Shown: positions 1-49,961 of the stretch, piece by piece
Layout of the letters: the number at the start of each line of letters is the position of its first letter
Position numbering within the stretch: the first letter of the stretch is position 1
Source: Leptolyngbyaceae cyanobacterium
GTDB lineage: Bacteria > Cyanobacteriota > Cyanobacteriia > Phormidesmidales > Phormidesmidaceae
Direction: 5' to 3'
Assembly: GCA_965263355.1 (NCBI GenBank)
Contig: CBDHHL010000041.1
Span: forward strand, 1 to 64,000
Length of the DNA: 64,000 nt
Notes under the pieces: generated by a model
What the model was told of the DNA's origin: nothing
The model's input: the letters and a program-made list of their open reading frames with translations, nothing else
Databases searched by the model: none
Program-made: the position numbers and the translations under genes

Positions 1-92
1 TCCCGACAGAAGATACCCATAGCCCCCTAGAGAACCTTAGCGCTGAAGCCATCCAACAACGTTTCCGCTGCCTTGTCGCCCAAACTGCGATG
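1..92 (-). ncRNA. Candidate tracrRNA/omegaRNA-like structured transcript divergent from the RHH-nuclease operon (truncated by window edge)
   Basis: Minus-strand promoter TTGGCG(126-121)-N17-TAATAT(103-98). The transcript has hairpins TCGC/GCGA and GCAGCG-GAAA-CGTTGT and sits next to a TnpB/Cas12-type gene. Confidence 0.4.
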
Positions 93-142
93 TCCTTATA
101 TTAGCGTGTTATATTTTGTACGCCAAGTATTTTTTAATATAA

Positions 143-343
143 ATGGGAAAAGAGAATAGAGAAGGCAGGATTTACGCCCGCATCAAGCAAAGTCGTAAAC
201 AAAAGCTAGAGCAGTATTGTAGACTTTGGGATATATCGATAGCAGACCTATTGGAACGCTTTATTGATATGCTGCCAGAGCTGCCACAAAACGACGTACA
301 AAATAATGAAGACGATCAAGGTAAAAGTCCAGCCGACCCCTGA
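143..343 (+). CDS. Ribbon-helix-helix (CopG-like) regulator upstream of the RNA-guided nuclease
   Basis: 66 aa with the RHH-like pattern RIYARIKQSRKQKLEQYCRLWDISIADLLERFIDML; overlaps the nuclease start. Confidence 0.6.
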   Translation: MGKENREGRIYARIKQSRKQKLEQYCRLWDISIADLLERFIDMLPELPQNDVQNNEDDQGKSPADP

Positions 344-2000
344 AACACTGATTAAATACGAGAAAATTTGCAGAGAGCTTGAATGGTTGTGGAATTATGC
401 ACGGGCCGTAGCCTTACATAATCATTGCCTTGAGTGGTATGCCTGGGCAGAAAAGAAAGGCGTCGACTTATCAGGCTGCATTAGAACGCCGTTACGCTTT
501 TCAAAGAGTGGCGGTTGGAATGGCGCAGCTTGTCAGATTGCTAAAGGAGGTCCGTATTTTAAGAAGTCAGACAAAGCCTCTTTGATTCACTATGGCGATG
601 GCAAAACAAAACTTGGCTATGAGTTAGTGGCTGGGGATAAGCCATATGAGCGGATAAAGCCAGAACCCCATAAATATATCGAAGTCCCTTATTTCAAGGA
701 AGGCGTCCCATTAATACGTGAGCTAAAGGGGAAATCATGGGGACTAGACAATATGGCGTTGCTAAATGCGTCACGAAGTTCTCAGGGTCTTGATGAATTA
801 ACGTGCAATAGTGATTTTGTTGGGGGGCTACTAGCTGACTTTGAGGTTGCCTGGAGGGCTTATTTAGACGGGAAACTGCCCGCTAGAAAGCAGCCAAAGT
901 ACAAGGACGGCAAGCAGTGTAAAATTAGCACGCTGAACAATAATCAAAAAGCCATCCCGTTCAAAAAAGGACAATTCGACGGTCAAGGCTTAGTTTTAGA
1001 ACCGTGCGATCGCAGCTATTCAAAAAGACTCGAAGGCTATGTAATAAAGACTTACAAACTGATATTAAAACCGAGTGGCTTCTATCTATGCCTAACTACT
1101 CAAAGTGAAGCGGAAGAAGAAAATAGATTAGAGCTTAAACGACAAAAAAGAGTTTTAATCGCTATCAAGAAAAAAGTTATTGATGGCATTAAAGGGAAAA
1201 AGGAACAAGCCAAGGCGTTAGCTAACAGTGAAGACTATCAAGCGGCATTAGCCAAGAAAAAGTCAATAGAAAATGAGCTGCCATACTTGCTAATAGAAGA
1301 CTCAAAATGCGCTAAACGAACCGGGCATATGGCGGGCATTGACCCTGGCGTTAAGGCAATTGTAGCGACTGACGAAGGTCATTTATTTAATCCTAACGAA
1401 AGCAGACAACGAATACACAATCATATTGAAAAGCTGCAATCCAAGCTTGATATTATGATTGAGAAAAATGATAAGCGGCTAGGACAAAAATGGAAGGGAG
1501 GGCAGCGGCGAGCCTCCAATAACGAGCAAAAACTTAGGGGCAAAATATCCAGACTTCATGAGCGAGCCGTTAATAGTTCAAATGCTTTCAATCATAAATT
1601 ATCAACCAGGTTAGCCAGAACTTATGATGTCATTGCTTGGGAGGCTACGGCGTTAACTAACATGGGGAGGCAGACAACGCCTAAATTAGCTGAAGATGGA
1701 AGTTATTACGAGCAAAACGGCAGAACAGCTAAGGCAGGATTGAACAGATCATTGAAAATAGCCTGTATGGGCGACCTTAGAACTAAAACAAAATCTAAAT
1801 TAGAGGAAGCCGGGAAATTATACATAGAGACGGAGGCTAGATACTCATCACAACGCTGTCATTGTTGCGGGGGAAAAGGCATCAGGCCAGCCCAAGACAC
1901 GTTTATTTGCGTAAATGAGAGCTGTAGCCTATTTGAACAGAAGCAAAATGCAGATGTTAACGCCGCAAGGAACCACAAGAAAAGAGGAATCACGGAATGA
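306..2000 (+). CDS. Large TnpB-derived RNA-guided nuclease, C2c8 (type V-U)-like Cas12 family
   Basis: 564 aa from ATG 306. RuvC-I GIDPG, RuvC-II IAWEA, Zn ribbon CHCC...CVNESC and RuvC-III NADVNAARN are all intact. The NMGRQTTPKLAEDGSYYEQNGRTAKAGLNRSL segment and extended N-terminus resemble cyanobacterial C2c8 as I recall it. Confidence 0.8.
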   Translation: MKTIKVKVQPTPETLIKYEKICRELEWLWNYARAVALHNHCLEWYAWAEKKGVDLSGCIRTPLRFSKSGGWNGAACQIAKGGPYFKKSDKASLIHYGDGKTKLGYELVAGDKPYERIKPEPHKYIEVPYFKEGVPLIRELKGKSWGLDNMALLNASRSSQGLDELTCNSDFVGGLLADFEVAWRAYLDGKLPARKQPKYKDGKQCKISTLNNNQKAIPFKKGQFDGQGLVLEPCDRSYSKRLEGYVIKTYKLILKPSGFYLCLTTQSEAEEENRLELKRQKRVLIAIKKKVIDGIKGKKEQAKALANSEDYQAALAKKKSIENELPYLLIEDSKCAKRTGHMAGIDPGVKAIVATDEGHLFNPNESRQRIHNHIEKLQSKLDIMIEKNDKRLGQKWKGGQRRASNNEQKLRGKISRLHERAVNSSNAFNHKLSTRLARTYDVIAWEATALTNMGRQTTPKLAEDGSYYEQNGRTAKAGLNRSLKIACMGDLRTKTKSKLEEAGKLYIETEARYSSQRCHCCGGKGIRPAQDTFICVNESCSLFEQKQNADVNAARNHKKRGITE

Positions 2001-2209
2001 TGACAGAAGCCTCCTCAATCACCATCTCCATACGCTCAAAAACCCTGACTAAAGCTCAACAGCTAAACATTCCGATTGAAGTGCTGCTGAGCGAGGAGCT
2101 ATCAAGGGTAGCCGACAGGCTCCTTCTGCCTTTGATTCAGGAATACGGAATGAACTGCGATAGAACCGATTACGTCCCAAGCTGGATAGAACAATCGGCC
2201 CAGCCATAA
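1997..2209 (+). CDS. Small hypothetical protein, possibly CcdA/RHH-like
   Basis: Overlaps the nuclease stop; ITISIRSKTLTKAQQLNIPIEVLLSEEL pattern. Confidence 0.3.
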   Translation: MMTEASSITISIRSKTLTKAQQLNIPIEVLLSEELSRVADRLLLPLIQEYGMNCDRTDYVPSWIEQSAQP

Positions 2210-2214
2210 GATGG

Positions 2215-2502
2215 ATGCCGATTTTCAGTTGCCAGCAGCTGCAGGCAATGGCTGATCCAGAACTGAGTGATGTGATTCAGATTAAGCAGCAGCAACTATC
2301 AAAGCTAGAGCAAGCCACTGGGCAAGACGTAGATCCAAACGACGTTGACATTTACGAAACGGTTGCTGCTGATCCTGAATTCTGGGAAGAACTAGCCCCC
2401 AGTGAGCTAAGGATAATTCTTGACTCACTAATCAAGCAGGTTGTTGTTCATGGGAAACAACTTTCGCCACAACAACGGGTAAAGGTTCAATTTTACCGTT
2501 AG
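2215..2502 (+). pseudogene. C-terminal fragment of a cyanobacterial large serine recombinase (XisF-like)
   Basis: Coiled coil plus ADPEFWEELAPSELRIILDSLIKQVVV resembles the C-terminus of XisF-type recombinases; no catalytic N-terminal domain is present. Confidence 0.45.
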
Positions 2503-14482: not shown

Positions 14483-14588
14483 GCCTCATTAACTCAGTTG
14501 GCAGAGTAACTGGTGCGCAATAACTCAGTTGAGGAGATTGCCTTAATCGTTCGCCAGGAAGTCGTAGGTTCGAATCCTGCATGAGGCA
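14483..14588 (+). tRNA. tRNA-like RNA with a 40-nt structured insert in place of the anticodon loop
   Basis: Acceptor GCCTCAT/ATGAGGC; D arm ACTC-AGTTGGCA-GAGT; anticodon stem CTGG/CCAG; T arm GTAGG-TTCGAAT-CCTGC. There is no 7-nt anticodon loop and no encoded CCA. Confidence 0.7.
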
Positions 14589-19980: not shown

Positions 19981-20772
19981 TCACATCTCTCTGTCGGCAA
20001 CGTCGGCAACAACTCGAAAACCGACATCTTTGTAGCGGTAGCCGGGTAGAGCGATGAGGCGCGAGGCGGAGCGGCAAAGCCTAGGACCGTAGAACCACGA
20101 GCCGCCGCGCAGTACACGCCTTGAACGCTCTCCTTGATCATCCCATGCGCTGCCATCCGTGGGCGCTCCCTTGTAATTCTTATGCGAATGATCTAAGCAC
20201 CATTCATCCACGTTGCCATGCATGTCATAAAGACCAAAAGCATTGGCTGGATACGCTCCCACAGGCGTTGTCTGATTAGCATCGTAATTAGCTAGCTCTG
20301 ACGTTAAGATATCGCCAAAGTGATAGCGAGTGGTTGTACCAGCACGACAGGCATATTCCCATTCAGCCTCTGTAGGCAAACGATGCTCACGCCCTGTGTG
20401 GGCCGACAATCGAGCACAAAACTCAACCGCATCATCCCAAGATACTCGCTCTACAGGACAGTCATCGCCCTTAAAATACGATGGATCAGTATCTAGATTG
20501 CGTTCTACTTGGGGTAGTGCTGCAACCGCCTTCCACTGGGCCTGCGTTACTGGATACTTACCCATCAGAAACGACTGTACAGTGACCTCACGCTGAGGCG
20601 ATTCGTCCTCATAGCACTCCGGTTCACCCTCTGGAGAGCCCATGGCAAAGACGCCCCCAGGGATGCGCACTAGCTCTACTTTTAGTGCTTCGTCATTTTT
20701 CATTAGCTGGTCTCCTCCTATTGTCTTCTGGATCAAAATTCCTTCGGCGTCGTAGTTTCGTTGAAATGACAT
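19981..20772 (-). CDS. FGE-sulfatase/CLec-fold protein, probable DGR target
   Basis: FAMGS, PVTQAQW, RLPTEAEWEYACRAGT, NAFGLYDMHGNVDEWC, VLRGGSW...CRSASR...GFRVV. Confidence 0.9.
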   Translation of the reverse strand: MSFQRNYDAEGILIQKTIGGDQLMKNDEALKVELVRIPGGVFAMGSPEGEPECYEDESPQREVTVQSFLMGKYPVTQAQWKAVAALPQVERNLDTDPSYFKGDDCPVERVSWDDAVEFCARLSAHTGREHRLPTEAEWEYACRAGTTTRYHFGDILTSELANYDANQTTPVGAYPANAFGLYDMHGNVDEWCLDHSHKNYKGAPTDGSAWDDQGERSRRVLRGGSWFYGPRLCRSASRLIALPGYRYKDVGFRVVADVADREM

Positions 20773-30062: not shown

Positions 30063-30389
30063 ATGACATTAGCATTAGGTATTTTGAACACCACAATCGC
30101 TACCACTGATGGAACTTTCGAGGTCAAGACTATTGACCTCAGCACCGCCAAAGACCTGATCACGTCCAACTCACTAGACAGCGCAGTTGGACATCAGTCC
30201 ACTGCTGATGTTATGACGACTCTTTTGGGGGTTAACGTCCCCATGAACCGGCAAGAATTTGTTCAGAAGATAGGGCAACAGGCCTTAGTTTTCAAGCTCA
30301 ACAAACGTCCTCAGGAAGGACACATTATGTCCGCTGCTGAGATCGAGGAAATGGGTTACAGCTTCAAGCTGATGACCCGCACTGCATAA
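30063..30389 (+). CDS. acrIII-1: AcrIII-1 family viral ring nuclease (DUF1874/YddF/STIV B116-like)
   Basis: 108 aa; LN(T), SAVGHQSTA (catalytic His), LLGV..PMNR, ALVFKL..RPQEGHIM..EI, matching the YddF/SIRV1 gp29 pattern. Confidence 0.88.
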   Translation: MTLALGILNTTIATTDGTFEVKTIDLSTAKDLITSNSLDSAVGHQSTADVMTTLLGVNVPMNRQEFVQKIGQQALVFKLNKRPQEGHIMSAAEIEEMGYSFKLMTRTA

Positions 30390-31592
30390 GCCGAAACCTA
30401 GGGGGCCTTCCCCCGATGGTCTGCCCAGTGTTGTTGCTGGGTACTGATGAGGTAGCTATGAAACAGGCTGAAATAAAAAGGATTCTTTCCGAATGGAGAG
30501 AAAAATCTGTTCCTTGCGGGACAACAGAGGTGATTGAAGGATGGGAAGTGTCTTCAAGCACCAATATCGTTGCAGCAAGATTCCCCGCTACGAACCCTTT
30601 AGATGGGCCAGTCAGGGGCTGGCGTGCATCTGTACCCCACAAAGGATGGGAATTTGGAAGAAGTACAGAACCAGAAGTCGTCGAAACCACTTTTGTGCCA
30701 AGCTCCTGGCACTGTCAGAATTGCGGCTACCCCGATGAAAGTATTGCAGACGGTGAACACTGCCCTTCATGTGGGATGTAGTCGTCATGAAACTAGGATT
30801 TTACCCCAGCGATGGGGACACCGTAGATGTTTGGACAGGCCAAGGCGAATGGCCTGAGCCGTCCCCTGAGCTAAAAGAAAAGGCTCAGCAGTTAGGAGCA
30901 GAACTCAGGGTTTATATGCTTATGGGTTACTTTCCTTATGACCCCTATTGCTACGCCTGGGGGGTGTTCGAAAAAGGCAAAGGTTATCACTACGACGGAA
31001 TCACATAATTTAGGAGTACTGCAATGCACGAATCTGAATCAAAGCCCGAAATAATCGGGCTGCTATGTGACGGACATTACGGGTGGTATACCCCTGTAAC
31101 ATTCGCTGATATGGACAGCCTCCCAGTTCATTGCTGGGATAATTTATTGCCCTTACCGGAGAAAGATAAAGATAAAGGTAAAGATGACAATAACTAAAGC
31201 TCAAGTAGTCAGCAGCATAGCCTTCTGTGCTGTAACCATGGCTAGTGCTAAAGCAGTGCTAGCCGAAACAGACAAGCCCCTTGCCGCAGCGCAAGGGGCA
31301 ACACAAGCTCTGGTCGGGGGTTTGGCAATGACAGTAATTTACGATAAAAAGGGGCTAATAAAAAAATGAGATACGTAGGTAGGTACAACAACGGCTCAGG
31401 TTATATGGAGTGGGCAGCCACTCCTGTAGCAACAATTGCCGAGGCAAAGAAGCAATTACAAGACATCAGCTGGACCGATGTGGATGTTTGCGAAGTCTTG
31501 AAGACGTCTAACGAAACAAAAGACGGCATCCCTGTTGAGGGAGAAGTCGTCGCGACTGGCATGTTAGGGAGAGGCTGGTCAGACGAAGAAAA

Positions 31593-33859: not shown

Positions 33860-34189
33860 TTAACCTAAAACTATACAACTAACTTTTTGGACGTTCGGGT
33901 TTGCTCCCGCACCCCCGCTAGACTCTCGCCAAACTCGAAATGTTGTTGAGCTTATCGACTGAGCCCCATGAGAATAGTTTAACGAAGCTCCTGACGATGG
34001 ATCGGCATTAGCAAAGCACGGATAATCAGCCGAGGCTTGAGCCGAATCCAAAGTAATCAACCATCGTCCTGTTGCTTCCCTCACGATACCCCCTGAGCTG
34101 ATGCCATCCAGGGAAAGTTCAGTGATGGTCGTTCCATCGTCAGTAAATACACAGGATGCTACTGCTGTTGTCGCCATAATTATCCCCAA
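33860..34189 (-). CDS. Stand-alone paralog of the C-terminal domain of the upstream tail protein
   Basis: Colinear with the last ~100 aa of 34180..36828 (VFTDDGTTITEL, REATGRWL, ADPSSGAS.NYSHGAQSIS). Confidence 0.75.
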   Translation of the reverse strand: MGIIMATTAVASCVFTDDGTTITELSLDGISSGGIVREATGRWLITLDSAQASADYPCFANADPSSGASLNYSHGAQSISSTTFRVWRESSGGAGANPNVQKVSCIVLG

Positions 34190-36828
34190 ACTGCAAAACT
34201 AACTTTTTGAATATTTGCATTTGCCCCTGCGCCTGAGCTTGCCTCTCTCCAAACTCTCAATGTTGTTGTGCTAATCGACTGCGCGCCATGAGAGTAATTA
34301 ATAGAGGCCCCTGACGATGGATCAGCGCTCGCGCTCGCGATAAAGTCAGCTGATGGCATTGCCGATACCAAGGTAACTAACCATCGTCCCGTTGCTTCCC
34401 TGGTAATCCCACCAGCGTTAACTCCGTCTAGGAACAGCTCAGTAATTGTCGTTCCATCGTCAGTAAATACGCCTGATGCAATAGCCGTTAAGCCTGTAGC
34501 GTTTGCATCGACAGCAACTGGGTTATCTTGAATTGCTGGTAAGTTTTCAGTGTTGCTTGTGGCTTCGGAAACTGACGGATTATCTTGAACAGCTGGTAAA
34601 TCTTCAGCATTACTAATCGGGATTGGCGAATTATCAACAGCGACTGGATTATCTTGAATAGCTGGCAAGTCTTCAGCATTACTAACCGGCGTTGGTGCCG
34701 TACTTGTAGCGACCGGATTATCTTCAATAGCTGGCAAGTCTTCTGCATTACTAGCAACGCCACTATCTGCAGCCGCAACCGGATTATCTTGAATCGCTGG
34801 CAAATCTTCAGTGATATTAATCGGAAATGATATCTCTATTGGAGGAGTCACCACATCCGGCGTTGCCCCAACCTCGCCAATCAACCCAAAATTACATCCA
34901 AATAGAGTCTCAGTTAAATTTGACGAGATACTAAAACCATTCAAAAAGTAAGCATCAATATTTCCATCGACAGTCACATCAACCCTCGATACCGGGTCAA
35001 ACGCAGTAAATAATTCTGTCGGGATTGCTCCAATAAATGAACGGCCCAGGCTCAATCCGTGTTGCCATTTCGCGGCCCATTCTGCTAGATCATTGCACTG
35101 GCGATCGCTCACAATCACATCAGCATTAACCCGGATTGTTCCCTCTTTCCATTTGTGGGCATTCCCTGAGACTGGTTCAATCTGCACTGAACCCGTGAAT
35201 TCTTGGTGCTCTTCTGTGTAAATGCTTTCCTGATATTCAATATCTGGTGGCCTCGTTGAACCGTCACTGGCCTGCAAGGTGAAGGTCAGGTCAGGGTCAG
35301 GGTTAGTTACCAGGGTCTCAGGGTTAGCCCCCGTATAATTTTTGAAGATTACGCCCCTCGGCTGCTGAGTAACTTGCTCAACACGCCATGCCTCAATCGC
35401 AGGATCTCCGCTAACGTCAAGTACTCTAGACCAGGTAGTCGTTTGAATTGAATAATCACGCTCTAAAAAGCGATTCAAATCATAGTTGGTAGGTGTTTTT
35501 TCGCCCCATTCCCAGAGGCACCATGGCCGACGTTCTGTGATAGTTCTTGAACTGACTACGCCTAAAATATTGTCGTAAGTATAGGTCGTGGTCGTTCGAC
35601 TGTTGTCAAGTAGTGTCAGTGCCGAGCTATTTTCTTCCTCACTAAACGCATCGCCACCACTAAGCCCCCGTGCTTTACGAATCAGCTCAACCGTTTCAGT
35701 CAGTCGTTTAGTGATTCCGTTATATCGATGGGTGATCGAACTATCTTCAGAATCTTGCAGACCATTATTCGTATTATCGACATCTGTCAGCAACGTCGGA
35801 ACAACGCCAGAATTATCCGTGGTGATCACCCTAGGCTGTATCTGTAATTCAGCTTGGCGTTCTACATACGTAATTACTGTCTGAGGTGCGCCCCCAGCTG
35901 GCGTTATTGTTTTAGTTTCAGTGCTGGTCAGGGATGTATATCCAGGGCCAGGAACAGTGCGAACGATTACGCTAGGATTTTCAATTTCTTGAGCAAGATC
36001 AGAACCGCCCGTTACTGTTAATTCTCCCGGTGGACGTTCTTCAAGGTTGACGGGTTCCCATCCGTTCTCGCCAACTGCGTCTCCTCCAATGCCGATAGTT
36101 AGACTAAAATCAGGAGCTGTTTTGAGTGTAAAGTCGGCTGGGGTGAGTCTTAATTCTTCATTGGAATCAAGCCAAGCAACATATTTTTGAGCCGCTGCTA
36201 TTTCCCCTATCTCGCGCACTGTTGACCGGGTAGATTTTTTCTGGACAGCTGTATTGACTGAATAACCGCCCGCGATAGTATCTGACGATGTTGTTAGTCC
36301 TATCTGAGTCGCGATATTACGAATTAACGTTGTGGGCGTTGTGGTTGTTCCCTGAGTGATTCCTGAGTAATTATTTTCTGGAGTAAACAGGTCTAGTGAT
36401 TTCCCAAGATCCCCTAAGTCAATCGTAATCTGAGCTTGAGAATCATTTGTAGGAATTTCTATCCTAGGGGATGCTTCCCTTAGGATATAAAACGGTGGCC
36501 AAAATCTTTCATAACTTGCCCCCGTCCACATGCTCAGTGTGATCCGGTTCCCCATGGCCAACACTTCAGCCCCCGACGGATTAGAGGCAGTATCGCGGTT
36601 ATCAAGGCTAACTGTTGTGCTTAATTCTGGGCTTAATACAACACTGCCTTCCCATGCCAACCAACCGTTTAACCTGTTTCCCGATCTCAGTTCGGAAAAG
36701 TCAATATCGACGCTAATCAAAGCGTCAGAAATATCATGCGGGCCACTAATCAAAGCTCGATTAGCGTCTAAAATCTCTAGGCTTGCTGTCCAGTCTTTAT
36801 CCTGAGCATCAATAGTAAAAGAGGTCAT
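34180..36828 (-). CDS. Large tail (hub/baseplate-like) protein with internal repeats
   Basis: 882 aa, two genes downstream of the tape measure; five ExLPA(I/V)(Q/E)DNP repeats. Confidence 0.7.
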   Translation of the reverse strand: MTSFTIDAQDKDWTASLEILDANRALISGPHDISDALISVDIDFSELRSGNRLNGWLAWEGSVVLSPELSTTVSLDNRDTASNPSGAEVLAMGNRITLSMWTGASYERFWPPFYILREASPRIEIPTNDSQAQITIDLGDLGKSLDLFTPENNYSGITQGTTTTPTTLIRNIATQIGLTTSSDTIAGGYSVNTAVQKKSTRSTVREIGEIAAAQKYVAWLDSNEELRLTPADFTLKTAPDFSLTIGIGGDAVGENGWEPVNLEERPPGELTVTGGSDLAQEIENPSVIVRTVPGPGYTSLTSTETKTITPAGGAPQTVITYVERQAELQIQPRVITTDNSGVVPTLLTDVDNTNNGLQDSEDSSITHRYNGITKRLTETVELIRKARGLSGGDAFSEEENSSALTLLDNSRTTTTYTYDNILGVVSSRTITERRPWCLWEWGEKTPTNYDLNRFLERDYSIQTTTWSRVLDVSGDPAIEAWRVEQVTQQPRGVIFKNYTGANPETLVTNPDPDLTFTLQASDGSTRPPDIEYQESIYTEEHQEFTGSVQIEPVSGNAHKWKEGTIRVNADVIVSDRQCNDLAEWAAKWQHGLSLGRSFIGAIPTELFTAFDPVSRVDVTVDGNIDAYFLNGFSISSNLTETLFGCNFGLIGEVGATPDVVTPPIEISFPINITEDLPAIQDNPVAAADSGVASNAEDLPAIEDNPVATSTAPTPVSNAEDLPAIQDNPVAVDNSPIPISNAEDLPAVQDNPSVSEATSNTENLPAIQDNPVAVDANATGLTAIASGVFTDDGTTITELFLDGVNAGGITREATGRWLVTLVSAMPSADFIASASADPSSGASINYSHGAQSISTTTLRVWREASSGAGANANIQKVSFAVWG

Positions 36829-37316: not shown

Positions 37317-40300
37317 TAGATAACTCCCTCCGCAATCTGTTGTTGCCGAGTTAGATCGGCTGTAATTTGCGCAGCGTCTGCTACCGGATCAGGCGTTGAA
37401 ACGGTTAGATTTTCTATGCCTGCTGGGCTATTCTCAATGGCTTCTTTTATCTCTGTTAGGCCATTGGCCAGCCTTTCTATTTGACTGTCTGCGATTGCAA
37501 TTTCTTGTTGCGAATCCAATAGAGAGCTGACTCCCCCCAATCCAACTTGGTCAAGGATGCCTGCCGCAAACGGATTGTTTGCATTGTTCTCAGCGAACCT
37601 GAATGCCTCCTCAATGCTGAATTCATCGCCACTACGGCCAAATCTTTGGGCTTGGTCGATAGCACTCTGCAGCTGGCCGAATTGATCGGCATCTAATGCG
37701 CCAGTTCTCCTCGCAGTTCGAGCATTTTCTTCTAATTGATCAAGGCTCCCCAGCGCATCATCAGATGAGATGTCAGACAATCCAGCTAATGCCGACACAA
37801 TGCTAGAAGTCGCCCGCTCTCGTCGTTCTGTCTCGCTGGCAATATCTTTTTCTATCTGTAACTGCTCGTCAGCTAGTTTTTTTTGTTGCTCCTTGAAGGA
37901 CTGAATCGCTTGTTCTCGCCTCTCCTGAATCGCCCGCTGGTTGGCTAGCTCTTGATCAGCGTCTAGTTGTTCAAACTGAATAGATAAGATATTTTTTTTG
38001 GATTGCGCTTGACTTTGTAGCGCCTCGGTTTCTTGCTCTCTCAGGCTCGCTATCTGCTGCAATGCCTGAATCTCATCGGCACTAGCGCCCTCTGCCCTAG
38101 CACGCTCAACCGCAATCCTGGCCTCAGCTTCCGCAATCTCTCCTAGTCTGAGCTGCCGATCTGCGTCTAGCTGGGTTAGCTGCTGCTGAATCTGTAGCTG
38201 TTGACGGCGGGCGTTGAATTCAGCTTGTATCGACCGTCTCTGGTTAAGAAGCAGACGATCTCTTATTTCCTCAACGGCCACAACGTCTTCAGCTGCTTCC
38301 GCTTCAGCTAATTTTCCTTCGAGCGTTTGACGGGAAAGTGATAGTCGAGATTGCTCTAAAGAAACCTGAGCGCCTATCAGGTTGGCCTGGTCTTGGAGCG
38401 CAGTTGACGCGATTCCAGACTGAATAGAAACTTGCTGTGCCTGTAGGTCGTTTAGCCGTTGTTGCGCATCCAGTTGTTCTAACGCGGCTTTTTTGGCTGC
38501 CTCTGCTTTTTTCTCGGCTGCCTCTCTAGCCGCATCTTGCGCATCAATTTCGCTTTCAATGCTTTCCAGTGTCAGGTCTGCTATCTCCTCCCTGGCTGCC
38601 CTAATCTGATCCGTAGCGTCTTTTTCAGAGATGACCTGCCGACTAGCGAAGTCTTCAATTTTCGCTATTTCATCCTCACGCAGTTGGATTCTCTCCCGAA
38701 TTGCATCAGACTCAATCTCACTGACCTGTGCGTCTGCCTGCTCCTCAGAAATATTGCCAGCCGCTTGATTCTGCCGTATAGCAGCAATGCGGTTTTGTTG
38801 GGCAATGTCAATATTGGCCAAAGCTTCTTTTTGGGCTTCTTCGAATTCCTTAGCAGCTTCTTCGTTGGCCTTAACCCGCTCCTGTGCTGCTCGCCTAGCC
38901 GCTCGCTCATCATTCTCGGCTACTTGGTCTGAAGCTTGCCTAAATGCTTCAACGAAGCTTAGATCAACCTCGGCTGCGGACCCGAGGCCACGGACATTTG
39001 CTTCAACCTCAACCCCTGTGTCAGCAATACCAAGGAGCCTAGATAGTGGCCCATCAAATTGACCGTCAAATCCTACATTTACTCGTCTGCCCTCAATGTC
39101 ATTAAGTTGATTAGCGATACTTCCTATGCTTTGATTTCGCCCATTGACAACGTCTTCCAGTGAACTAGCCAAGCCCAGCCGCTCAAGGCCATCAATCAAC
39201 GAAAGCACTGCATCTAGTAACGAGATCGCATCGCTAGTAAAGTCGGAAATCCCCTGCCCTAAGTTCTCAATGCTTTGCGCGAACAGTTCAATATTTTCTG
39301 GGTTTTCAAGTGTTTGAGTGATTCGGTCTAAAATCGTCGCTACCGCTTCAGCACCACTATTCGCGAAACTGGTCAGCGCCTCTCCTAACCGCTCTGCCAA
39401 TTCTGGATTATCCGCGAGTGAATCACGCAACCTTTCCCCTGCCTGCGTCAATGGGTCTAAAGCGCTTGCGTCAACATTGCTGAAGATTGCCCCAAACGTA
39501 TTGCTGAATGCTGTTTCTAGTGGTTCTAGTGACGCTCCTAGCTGTTGTTGGAATCCAAGAATTTCATTTTCCAGTGCTGCGATCGCTTGCTGTGCGGCTG
39601 GGGCTTCGCCTTCAATCTCAGCCAACCCTCGTGTAAATGCTGGAATAAATTCAGAGGCAGTTAGATTTCCTGAACTGACTAGGTCATTCAATTCAGCTGT
39701 AGTGATCCCTAGCCCACGGGCGACAGCCCCAAAGGCGACAGGTAACTGCTCCCCTAGCTGTTGTCGCAATTCTTCCATAGAGACCACGCCTTTTGACGTA
39801 ATCTGCGTTAAAGCATTAAATGCTAACCCTGTAGAAACACTGTCCTTGCCAAAAATCGCTAATACTCGGCTTGTCTCGGCGAAAAGATCATTCACTTGCT
39901 GTTGAGGGACTCCAGCCTCAGCAGCAGCTGCCGTTAATCCTGAATACTCAGTCTGTAATGCCTGAAAAGACTGCCCAGTTCGCTCTGAAACTTCTCTTAG
40001 AAAGTCAATTGATTCAGCTGCAGCATCTTGTGACCCAAGAACAATGCTTAAAACATTGTTTGTCGCCCTCAGGCTCCTGTTCGCCTGGATGCTCGCCGCA
40101 ACAAATTCAGTAACTTTTGATGTTAGCTCCCCAAATAGGTCAACCAACCTATCAAGTGCTGCAAACGCTGCTGCACCTCGGAACGCTTGCAGTACAAAGC
40201 TGAAGTCACCGATAGGCTTCTCTGCCTGATTGGCCGCCCTAGCTGTGCTGTTCAATTCGGACTGTAGGCGCTTGAGGGTTTGGGCCGCATCATCGCCGCT

Positions 40301-40834
40301 AAGCCCCTCCAATGTTCTATCTAGCTGGTTTAGCTGAGCCCTCGCATCTCCTGTGTCAGCATCAACCTTAATTCTACGAGCTTCGAGCTTAGCTATGTCA
40401 GCTTCAATCTTGCGGATCTCAGTGGCGGCCCCTGGAGTAACAAGTGGGATCTCTAGCTTTCGTCGATTCAGCCTTTCAATCCTAGACTCGATGCCCGCCA
40501 GGTCAGCGTCCCCACGAGCAACCTTGAACTCTACATTGATCCGTTGCCTCTGCAGACCCTCAATAGCCTGCTCCAACGTCAGCAGCTCATCTTTTGCTGA
40601 CTGAACAGATCGAGATAACTGCTGAGTGTTTGCGCTGAAATTAAACTCGGGGATTTGGATATTCGTAAAAGCATCCTGAACAGTTCTAGCCGCTCTAGCT
40701 GCTGGGCCTGCATCAGGAATCTTTAGATCAATATCGCCAACCCCAGCAAAGCGCTGCTCAAGCTGAGAGATAGCGCGATCTGCTGATGCGCGATCAATCC
40801 CAACCTGAAAAATAACTCTGCCAGCGTCAACCAT
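37316..40834 (-). CDS. Tape measure protein
   Basis: About 1170 aa helical protein; ALTQITSKGVVSMEELRQQLGEQLP tape-measure motif; ATG at 40834. Confidence 0.92.
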   Translation of the reverse strand: MVDAGRVIFQVGIDRASADRAISQLEQRFAGVGDIDLKIPDAGPAARAARTVQDAFTNIQIPEFNFSANTQQLSRSVQSAKDELLTLEQAIEGLQRQRINVEFKVARGDADLAGIESRIERLNRRKLEIPLVTPGAATEIRKIEADIAKLEARRIKVDADTGDARAQLNQLDRTLEGLSGDDAAQTLKRLQSELNSTARAANQAEKPIGDFSFVLQAFRGAAAFAALDRLVDLFGELTSKVTEFVAASIQANRSLRATNNVLSIVLGSQDAAAESIDFLREVSERTGQSFQALQTEYSGLTAAAAEAGVPQQQVNDLFAETSRVLAIFGKDSVSTGLAFNALTQITSKGVVSMEELRQQLGEQLPVAFGAVARGLGITTAELNDLVSSGNLTASEFIPAFTRGLAEIEGEAPAAQQAIAALENEILGFQQQLGASLEPLETAFSNTFGAIFSNVDASALDPLTQAGERLRDSLADNPELAERLGEALTSFANSGAEAVATILDRITQTLENPENIELFAQSIENLGQGISDFTSDAISLLDAVLSLIDGLERLGLASSLEDVVNGRNQSIGSIANQLNDIEGRRVNVGFDGQFDGPLSRLLGIADTGVEVEANVRGLGSAAEVDLSFVEAFRQASDQVAENDERAARRAAQERVKANEEAAKEFEEAQKEALANIDIAQQNRIAAIRQNQAAGNISEEQADAQVSEIESDAIRERIQLREDEIAKIEDFASRQVISEKDATDQIRAAREEIADLTLESIESEIDAQDAAREAAEKKAEAAKKAALEQLDAQQRLNDLQAQQVSIQSGIASTALQDQANLIGAQVSLEQSRLSLSRQTLEGKLAEAEAAEDVVAVEEIRDRLLLNQRRSIQAEFNARRQQLQIQQQLTQLDADRQLRLGEIAEAEARIAVERARAEGASADEIQALQQIASLREQETEALQSQAQSKKNILSIQFEQLDADQELANQRAIQERREQAIQSFKEQQKKLADEQLQIEKDIASETERRERATSSIVSALAGLSDISSDDALGSLDQLEENARTARRTGALDADQFGQLQSAIDQAQRFGRSGDEFSIEEAFRFAENNANNPFAAGILDQVGLGGVSSLLDSQQEIAIADSQIERLANGLTEIKEAIENSPAGIENLTVSTPDPVADAAQITADLTRQQQIAEGVI

Positions 40835-47197: not shown

Positions 47198-47511
47198 GGC
47201 TCAGCTGCTCAACTACATTACTAATATAGTATATATAGAATTAATTGTCTATATACTTAATTGAAGTTTACGCAAAGTTTTCATTGATCATGACTAAAGT
47301 ACGCCTCCCCGATTCCCCAGGTCCACGACGCAACAGTAGGCCTAAGCCACGGTATGGCACGGTGAAGCATGCCCCATGGTCGATGCCTGGTTATCTGTTC
47401 GTAGAGAAGCCTGAGGGAGGGTGTTGGTGGATTAGAGAGGATATTTGTGAGAAACAAAAACCGCCAAGCTTTTAGGCTCGACGGTTTTGGATTGATTCAG
47501 TTGTTTTTGCT

Positions 47512-47712: not shown

Positions 47713-49961
47713 TATTCAATGTCAAACTGGTTTCCACCGTCATAAAACTCCGGCGCTCTCCATGCATCATCGTCTAGGCTTAAGCCCAGCTCGATAAATG
47801 CCGCCTCAATCGCCTCTTCAAAAGAACAGTCTCTAAAGACAGAGGACTTCCAACGCGTGGCCCCACGGCTCTGCTCAATGCAGTTCTTAACAATCGAGGA
47901 GAAAGACTCACAATCCTCACCACCCCAGTCAGTTGAGTTAAGCAGCGCACGTTCTTTAGCGGCAAGCTTTGCTGACTGCGTTTCAAAAATCAAAGCTTGC
48001 GCAAGATCGTTATTCATCAAAGCAACTCCGTTTTCCTCAATTACTCTTTTAATTTAACACACACCTAATTAATTGCGTGTGTATATATGTACGGATAAAA
48101 AGACACCGCCAAGTTTTTAGGCTCGGCGGTTTTTGAGGTTTTTCATGATAAAAAGATTCCCTGGCTTGGCTTATACGGTCGACTAGGCGCATCCACCTAG
48201 TTCAAGCCCGTTTGGTTGATCGCTAAGGATTCTCCAAACCTTTCCTTGGTGAAGTACTTTGCATCCTTGGTTTATTTTTATTGGTCGTAACTCCATCCAT
48301 TCTTTGGTGTTGAGCGATCGCGGCATTCCCACAGTGTGAATTCATACCCTGCGTATCGCGCACCCAGTTGGTTGGCACTGAAATTAAGATGCCAGCAACT
48401 AGGAAAGCCGTGTTCGTCTACTGGATTGTTAAAAGTGTTATCTCCTGAAAATTTCACCCGTCTGTCAGAGTAGTTGGCTGGGTCGTCTAGGCTTGCCTTT
48501 CGCAAGGTGATTATTTGCCCTTGGCGCAATATACTAGGGTGTAGTTGGTTCATTGTTCATTTGTTCCATAACTATATGTGGTTGCCCAGCGGTCGCGGTC
48601 GCTCGCTCAGGAATCTCAGGGTCGACCACAATGGGTATGCTCTCGAATGATTGCAGCTCGATATCTTCGATAGTGTAATTAACCGAGCCAGCCACCTCCA
48701 ATCTGAGGGCTGAATAAGTTCGATAGCCTAAGATTAGTTGCTTAGGGTATTCGTGCTGGGTAGATGCGTATGCTTGGATTGCCTTTGTAATTTCGGGTGG
48801 GATTGCCATCAGTAGTTGCAACTCAAGAATTTTTCTTTCCCTAAAGCCGTCGTGTAGACCAGCTTAAAGAAACTGCCTGTGTTAACAAACTCATCAATAA
48901 CGCTACCAGGGATTTGTTCCACTTCTTTCCTTTGATCTTCAGTTAAATCAATGCCACCGATGGAGATGACTGAACCGCCATTAACGTACAAAATGAGTGT
49001 TTGCTCGACAATAACCGCATCTATGATCATGACTCCTGTGCTTTTATCTTCCATTATTCCTTTGAGGTAGACTTCTTCAATTTCTGGGAAGGCCTCCCTC
49101 CCTTTAGCTTCAGTTAATTTTAGCGAAGAAACCAACCAAACCTCTTCGTTGATTGACTCATGCTTTTGCTCGTCCCCCAGCGCTGCAAGTAATCCAGTGA
49201 ACTGATAAGCAAGAGCCTCAGGCATTTCAATCTGAAGTTCTGCAGCCAGAGCCTTCACGTTCTCAACAGCCTCACTAGATGGGGACTTGAAAGAATAATT
49301 TATTTCATCCATGGTCCAAAAGCTCCTGAGTTTCCTTTTCTAAGCGAGCTATAAAAGCTTCTGGGCTTAAACACGCCCCTCCTTCCCCGTATCGATTGCC
49401 CGAAATCATGTCTTCAAAAGAGTCATCTAGCATTGAAGACGTGCCTTTGAGATCGGCACGGTCGAGTCTTTCTTGCAGGCTCCATATAGAGCCTCTGCCA
49501 TACTCTTCAAGATAGAATTCAAGGAATTCTTCCAGGCTCATGAGTATAGACGCAGGTGCGTCCGTAACTTCTGAATACTCGAAGTATTTATCTTCTATTT
49601 TGCCAATATGTCGAGGCATTTTCTCTCCTTAATGTTCTTCTTTCTTTTCTTGCCCAGAATGCCTAACGCAACCAAAATTTTCTCCAGTAAACAGTTCTGC
49701 ATAGTACTCTGAACCATCGACCAAGCCGAACCCTGACGCACCTAAGGGCAGCTCTGCAAACGTTTTCTCGGGATGCTGGCAAGACCTCACTTCGTACCCA
49801 ATATCCATGGGTGTTAAATCGGGGTTCATTGGCTCCCACATGGATGAGTCTCTTGACGATTGACCGTCGAGTGTCCAATAATCGCAGGTTTTGCATCTAG
49901 GGAATTCCATTTTTCTCTCCTAAGTATTTTTTCTTTTCTTGATTAGTTGCGTCCAGGGCAA

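Follow-up and report, generated by a model that had tools for sequence, protein, structure and literature searches.

What kind of RNA-guided nuclease lies at the left end of this phage contig, and from where does it take its guide? The gene in question occupies positions 306 to 2000 on the plus strand of the window (the whole 64-kb stretch of DNA analysed here) and encodes 564 aa from an ATG at 306. Within it, 16 of the 21 listed strain differences fall in third codon positions. A longer form starting at a TTG at 264 was rejected, as relatives start with MKT and the variants there fit the frame of the small gene in front. An earlier note on this DNA had pointed to an intact D-E-D RuvC triad, a zinc ribbon and two insertions, and all of these are present. 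The triad (D346, E446 and D550) is invariant in 33 of 33 and in 45 of 45 aligned relatives, and the zinc-finger cysteines (C518, C521, C535 and C540) do not vary among the 33. One insertion spans about residues 51–145 near the N-terminus; the other, at 268–332, is rich in lysine (18% versus 12% overall) and forms three helices in the AlphaFold model of the nuclease (pLDDT 88.8). The protein falls in a cluster of seven members, five of the six others being at 94–99%, and the sister cluster also has seven.

To which family does the protein belong? The C2c8/V-U label first given to it does not stand, although C2c8 (NCBIfam) and Cas12u2 (PADLOC) are its top profile matches: with the C2c8 profile NF038192 it reaches 174 bits against a cut-off of 350, where a true Cas12p scores 194 and the V-U2 effector of phage CL131 scores 451. 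The best solved relative in a PDB sequence search is Cas12p, 9JFS (E 1e-111, the next being at 9e-10), with 44% identity over 533 columns. Foldseek with the model returns 9JG3 (E 4e-45) and 9JFS (E 2e-41), then TnpB at 1e-12, and the TranC structure 9JFQ at E 9e-10 with 12% identity. In an IQ-TREE phylogeny of 33 rows picked as representatives, the window nuclease and Cas12p-1 share a 21-row clade (support 100/100), the window nuclease and the array-bearing P0007/L081 share an 8-row clade (100/99), and the V-U2 of phage CL131 falls outside the Cas12p clade; FastTree on 90 rows agrees with this placement. The nuclease does pass the guided_TnpB cut-off (116 versus 100), but it reaches 52 of 425 for IS200_TnpB and 43 of 350 for IS607_TnpB. 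Profile searches and phylogeny, which the earlier note had proposed as a check, thus give no clustering with ordinary IS605/IS607 TnpB, and the neighbourhood of the gene yielded no tnpA (PHROG transposase matches were 0 among 50 scanned ORFs, with small ORFs scanned in part). The gene is a domesticated, phage-borne Cas12-like one, as had been proposed, and its product almost certainly belongs to Cas12p (type V-P). It is a divergent form of an already described and solved family and no new CRISPR subtype.

A GTDB scan gave 3 distant archaeal TnpBs, nuclease and terminase protein searches of viral contigs gave no close contig, and a plasmid search gave no match. Other compact TnpB-like type V effectors that adjoin arrays (L016, L017, L018 and L096) lie outside the Cas12p clade, L017 and L018 making up a branch of their own.

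Does the protein retain what is characteristic of Cas12p? In the accessible part of the preprint, Cas12p-1 has catalytic residues D378, E478 and D582 and a zinc finger, family members measure 500–700 aa, the PAM is GTN with contacts D197, N261, Q262 and K332, and activation occurs by TrxA binding (10.1101/2025.01.20.633832). The protein encoded at locus L001 is identical to 9JFS across all 613 aligned residues; its RNA is therefore the studied Cas12p tracrRNA, and the residues named in the preprint can be mapped onto the window nuclease. All four PAM contacts are kept (D148, N213, Q214 and K278, the alignment of K278 being less sure). Eight of 14 thioredoxin contacts are identical, including C76 and I78. 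C76 corresponds to C127 of Cas12p, and all 45 aligned rows have this cysteine. Of the Cas12p residues, W102 and L51 are missing, and only two of seven basic TB.b residues are kept. On the basis of this residue mapping onto Cas12p-1, the N-terminal insertion corresponds to the thioredoxin-binding domain and the Lys-rich one to the PAM-interacting helices, in a protein that also comprises WED/REC, RuvC and zinc finger. By analogy with Cas12p-1, the window nuclease would cleave its target, read a GTN-like PAM and depend on thioredoxin.

Is the RNA that diverges from the gene a guide RNA? On the minus strand, the sequence starting at position 91 opens with the motif that begins Cas12p-family tracrRNA. 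A search of the 64 kb for this motif, CGCAGTTYGGRCG, gives this one occurrence, against 0.01 expected, and no second scaffold start; none of the 124 non-family loci has it, and 14 of its 18 matches in viral contigs adjoin Cas12p-family genes. Four matches (L158, L161, L165 and L172) have no nuclease, appear chance-like and were excluded from the covariance model. Positions 91 to 1 would represent the 5′ part of a Cas12p-type tracrRNA or guide scaffold, consisting of stem 1 with its GUUU pseudoknot loop at 90–76 (covariance model and motif), stem 2 at 72–55 and probable stem 3 at 52–45 with 26–19 (both by constrained fold), and the 5′ arm of stem 4, cut where the window stops in the would-be loop. 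The closing pair of stem 1, C-G in 15 of 15 relatives, is U-A in the window, a compensatory change. In three runs from one study the contig extends 209 letters beyond the left edge, and the 30 letters past the edge complete, by eye, a stem of 7 bp capped by a GAAA loop; relatives have a GNRA-capped stem 4 there.

Available text of the preprint describes a tracrRNA with a GUUU pseudoknot loop and stems 1–6 (10.1101/2025.01.20.633832), and alignment numbering of the L001 scaffold reproduces its G7-U10, U42/U43/G64 and C77-G78-A79. Among 11 relatives, both sides have changed in 22 of 30 pairs, which none of 500 shuffles reaches (slid controls give 3–10), and loop and repeat end covary family-wide, GUUU:AAAC versus GUUC:GAAC. 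With a covariance model built without the window sequence, stem 1 alone scores in the window, at 10.3 bits (E 0.6 for the window, 0.028 for 3 kb); with 33 sources pooled and E ≤ 1, a search did not recover the window, and 13 TnpB/V-U loci give no match to the model. Records of L002, L007, L009, L014 and L019 were left out of these runs. Unconstrained folding of the window RNA yields no stem 1 (pair probability about 0.2) and no stem 3, whereas the L001, L081 and L007 scaffolds fold natively without constraint. The description of the transcript as hairpin-rich found no backing, its folding energy being at chance (z 0.30). Genuine scaffolds shortened to 91 nt have similar values (z 0.16, 0.09 and −1.89), and folding energy was dropped as evidence either way. 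Rfam has no match near the nuclease gene, and searches with window positions 1–30 and with the U-A scaffold variant gave no match or close contig among viral contigs. The divergent RNA is very probably a diverged Cas12p scaffold; the stem 1 motif, the compensatory pair and the promoter spacing point to a non-coding RNA of a guide system and not to an mRNA, as had been suspected. The earlier note placed the tracrRNA to the left of the window; about 90 nt from its start onwards lie inside, at 91 to 1, and the remainder is past the edge.

A predicted sigma70-type promoter for the scaffold lies on the minus strand at 98–126, with the −35 TTGGCG at 126–121 and the −10 TAATAT at 103–98. Its architecture, TTGGCG-17-TAATAT-7 nt-start, parallels the TTGACA-17-TAATAT-7 of the Cas12p-1 tracrRNA at L001, and promoter and stem 1 together (59 nt) align to L001 at 68% (E 0.016). 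A strain variant at 123 brings the −35 nearer to consensus, and there is a 1-nt insertion at 112. A promoter-like site is accordingly present where a divergent promoter had been reported, with the 17-nt and 7-nt spacings found before the Cas12p-1 tracrRNA, although the site at 98–126 is not among the calls of a generic promoter scanner.

Between this promoter and the nuclease is a 66-aa ORF (143–343, plus strand), a candidate RHH (Arc/CopG-like) repressor that overlaps the nuclease start by 38 nt. Of the eight variants listed for it, five fall in third positions of the RHH frame and one in third positions of the nuclease frame. A 90% identical copy is P0228, whose longest contig equals in length that of a nuclease of the sister cluster. 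Is it an RHH regulator, as was claimed? The Atlas relates it at 0.93 to a cyanobacterial CopG cluster, with RHH_1 on just 10% of that cluster, and the co-located ORF at L007 is 29% identical (pairwise E 4e-5), but Pfam, NCBIfam and PHROG give no RHH match. The ORF is RHH-like, in line with that claim. The sequence TTATATT occurs at 96 and again at 109, and both copies are candidate operators for the RHH-like protein. In IS605, divergent promoters adjoining TnpB are under repression by Arc proteins, and V-K systems are predicted to have Arc-like genes, according to the accessible sections of a recent report (10.64898/2026.09.24.754181); by analogy, the RHH-like protein may repress the shared promoter.

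Downstream, a 70-aa ORF (1997–2209, plus strand) is translationally coupled to the nuclease by an ATGA overlap with its stop, in agreement with the coupled ORF described before. Its best Atlas relation is 0.90 to unnamed clusters, with 0.88 to a CopG cluster and a CcdA match at E 0.2, and one run has an in-frame 3-nt deletion. As a lead only, it is possibly a second RHH-like protein. The right junction of the module is formed by the 3′ remnant of a serine integrase (2233–2502, plus strand, codons 398–486), of which 87 of 89 residues are identical to the 486-aa recombinase P0229; the window has no other part of that protein. The region 2215–2502 is a remnant of a gene whose intact form elsewhere is 486 aa, with 19 members. 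Public runs show loose ends at 2233 and 2243, and since both sides join other sequence, the genome is recombinant or deleted at an 11-nt overlap. The phage may have lost integration, barring another integrase in the 7.4 kb past the window. Among the 50 scanned ORFs are tailed-phage genes for terminase, portal, scaffold, tape measure, DnaB, RecT and a repressor-type protein. HIP1 is a cyanobacterial marker, and its excess (13 sites in the window versus 0.8 expected) indicates a cyanobacterial host.

Where might the crRNAs be encoded? There is no CRISPR array in the 64-kb window; the contig measures 71,445 bp, so that about 7.4 kb of it lie outside. The 31 Cas12p-family loci form 11 groups at 90% clustering; a scaffold is present in 10 of these, downstream in seven, and an array is in the flank of six of the 11. 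Phage Cr-LKS4 represents a seventh array-bearing group, with arrays about 30 kb away from the nuclease. The closest relative for which DNA is available, L081 (50%), has a tracrRNA and a 10-repeat array. A divergent scaffold within 300 nt of the nuclease start, as in the window, is found in two groups, and these split: in the L010 group, scaffold and then array lie 70 nt upstream and are directed away from the nuclease, whereas at L007 the guide unit ends in a single GATATTGAAAC, with no array within about 570 nt. An array to the left of the window is consequently unproven. L007, alone among the relatives, also has an RHH-like ORF between divergent scaffold and nuclease, the layout of the window, and L019, with a nuclease at least 90% identical to that of L007, is without the upstream scaffold–RHH module. 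Among the matches listed for 196 spacers of relatives, none to the window is beyond chance.

At L007, positions 560–720 of the minus strand form a naturally fused guide unit in which the guide region starts over a promoter-like site, TTGACA-17-TCTACT, and the locus carries a second scaffold downstream. The Cas12p-1 locus has two back-to-back arrays with different repeats (L001, 6153–8854), the second consisting of 27 repeats in opposite direction that do not end in AAAC.

The cyanophage Cr-LKS4 and its sister phage CrV-01T, both cultured, carry 10 and 12 scaffold copies per genome. Four of the 10 copies in Cr-LKS4 are fused within 10–21 nt to a GGGAAC repeat end. One of these, a promoter–scaffold–repeat-end cassette at 40287–40399 of OQ625504 (L193), represents a ~210-nt insert that is missing in CrV-01T (MH636380; L195, 680–730). 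Its guide is its own right flank, which matches the empty site of CrV-01T at 30 of 30 positions. A second fused guide matches an upstream in-gene copy at 28–29 of 30, and for two of the four fused copies neither phage has an empty site. The bases that precede the two guide-matching sites share no common PAM. The Cr-LKS4 nuclease is annotated as ‘transposase’ and its PAM residues are changed. The cassette with an empty sister allele suggests homing.

How might the module of the window work? The reading favoured here, at a probability of roughly 55%, is a type V-P (Cas12p) system of a cyanophage, flipped in layout, with a tracrRNA and with an array outside the window. A single bidirectional promoter region would drive the tracrRNA leftwards and an operon of RHH gene, nuclease and 70-aa ORF rightwards. 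The nuclease would load the tracrRNA with crRNAs whose array lies further left or at another place in the genome, a repeat end (expected to be AAAC) pairing with the GUUU loop. It would be switched on by binding host thioredoxin via the C76 pocket, read a GTN-like PAM and, inside the infected cell, cleave double-stranded DNA belonging to rival phages or plasmids, with the RHH protein repressing the shared promoter. The host as a target, also proposed in the earlier note, is without support.

Could the module instead carry a fused single guide? In such a case the scaffold would run into a truncated repeat end and read into the flank like a TnpB omegaRNA, in an Arc-repressed homing cassette, and the nuclease would cut the empty allele of co-infecting sister phages, with the module copied in by repair. 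L007 argues for this by its shared layout, its one repeat end and its array-free flank, as do L019, which lacks the module next to a near-identical nuclease, and the four fused copies of Cr-LKS4 with the 30-of-30 match to an empty site. Moreover, the window is array-free, its module adjoins a broken integrase, and Arc next to TnpB is a feature of IS605 in the available portion of the IS605 study (10.64898/2026.09.24.754181). Yet the 3′ end of the window RNA lies beyond the window edge, and a second scaffold start is absent from the 64 kb. The one clean filled/empty pair comes from a different subclade; there, both phages carry two of the four fused copies, no PAM is common to the guide-matching sites, and Cr-LKS4 carries arrays too, while L081 relies on a tracrRNA and its 10-repeat array. 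The fused guide and the homing that would go with it are together a tentative possibility. So, at the same level, is the wider idea that Cas12p phages shift back and forth across the boundary of TnpB and Cas12, giving rise, next to tracrRNA and array, to promoter–scaffold–repeat-end cassettes that take their guide from the flank and home into empty alleles of sister phages, and that the window holds an autonomous, Arc-repressed, array-free and thioredoxin-gated homing nuclease served by a single natural guide.

Decay of the RNA is an unlikely explanation. Here the protein would still be selected but guided from elsewhere, or the scaffold would be a remnant, as the weak model score, the non-native unconstrained fold, the rearranged right junction and the reduced TB.b loop could suggest; the compensatory U-A pair, the conserved promoter spacing, the completion of stem 4 by contigs past the edge in three runs and the seven-member cluster with five of six others at 94–99% speak for a maintained element. 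Very improbable is a C2c8/V-U2 effector, or an ordinary TnpB of IS605/IS607 whose omegaRNA lies downstream, with an mRNA leader as the divergent transcript. RHH genes do occur in IS605 elements, and the best NCBIfam and PADLOC matches and the guided_TnpB score would fit, but a coding ORF directly follows the stop codon, where the omegaRNA is expected. Profile cut-offs (C2c8, IS200_TnpB and IS607_TnpB all missed), separate clades and the specificity of the scaffold (motif in 0 of 124 non-family loci, model silent in 13 TnpB/V-U loci) largely refute such an identity.

How does the flipped type V-P system compare with those already known? TranC systems reportedly use both fused and split guides. 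Cas12p is the ‘Cas12 hacker-1’ of type V-P (PDB 9JFS, 9JG3), and ‘hacker-2’ is a divergent twelfth member, according to the preprint text at hand (10.1101/2025.01.20.633832; Nat Microbiol 11:81 per PMC13728456). The window shares with Cas12p the domain order, the RuvC triad, the core of the thioredoxin pocket including C127, the PAM contacts, tracrRNA stem 1 with its GUUU loop, the phage location and a size within 500–700 aa. It differs in the absence of a ~50-aa helical insert in REC, of W102 and L51, of most basic TB.b residues and of the C-terminal tail, in longer PI helices, in a scaffold that is upstream and divergent (downstream in Cas12p-1) and in the RHH gene in front. The V-U2/C2c8 effector of cyanophage vB_AphaS-CL131, as far as its report was available (PMC6293099), is likewise a cyanophage-borne, TnpB-derived compact type V protein and the nearest profile family, but the match is 32% over 216 aa only, the clade is another one and the CL131 locus has no match to the Cas12p scaffold. 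Arc-regulated IS605, in the sections accessible (10.64898/2026.09.24.754181), also has a small RHH gene adjoining a TnpB-family nuclease and divergent promoters; the window, in contrast, has no tnpA or downstream omegaRNA, and the putative regulated partner is a CRISPR-type scaffold. TranC, early intermediates from TnpB to Cas12 in the portion available (10.1101/2025.09.28.678669), is similar in size, but its structural match is far weaker (9JFQ, E 9e-10, 12%) and its clade different.

A literature search, with the journal version of the Cas12p work and the preprint supplements (which may list this subclade) outside it, found no RHH-regulated, flipped or single-guide Cas12p. The significance of the locus is several-fold. 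Its nuclease, a divergent orthologue of 564 aa that lacks the REC insert and the C-terminal tail, can serve as a natural experiment on the importance of individual thioredoxin contacts. The RHH-like ORF is a candidate repressor for Cas12p, whose control is not described in the accessible preprint sections (10.1101/2025.01.20.633832). If the fused single guide were true, a CRISPR-associated Cas12 would be reverting to an omegaRNA-like homing life, and the pair Cr-LKS4 and CrV-01T makes the homing reading testable now.

The window contains further elements apart from the module. A type II hammerhead ribozyme is found at 30389–30461 on the plus strand (45.4 versus an Rfam gathering threshold of 37). 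A tRNA match at 14483–14588, plus strand, extends over 106 nt compared with a model of 71 positions, possibly because of an intron or a long arm. A protein with a formylglycine-generating-enzyme-like domain is encoded at 19984–20772 on the minus strand. There is also a 320-nt tandem duplication at 33860–34489, and a 43-nt hairpin element is repeated at 47449–47491 and 48094–48136.
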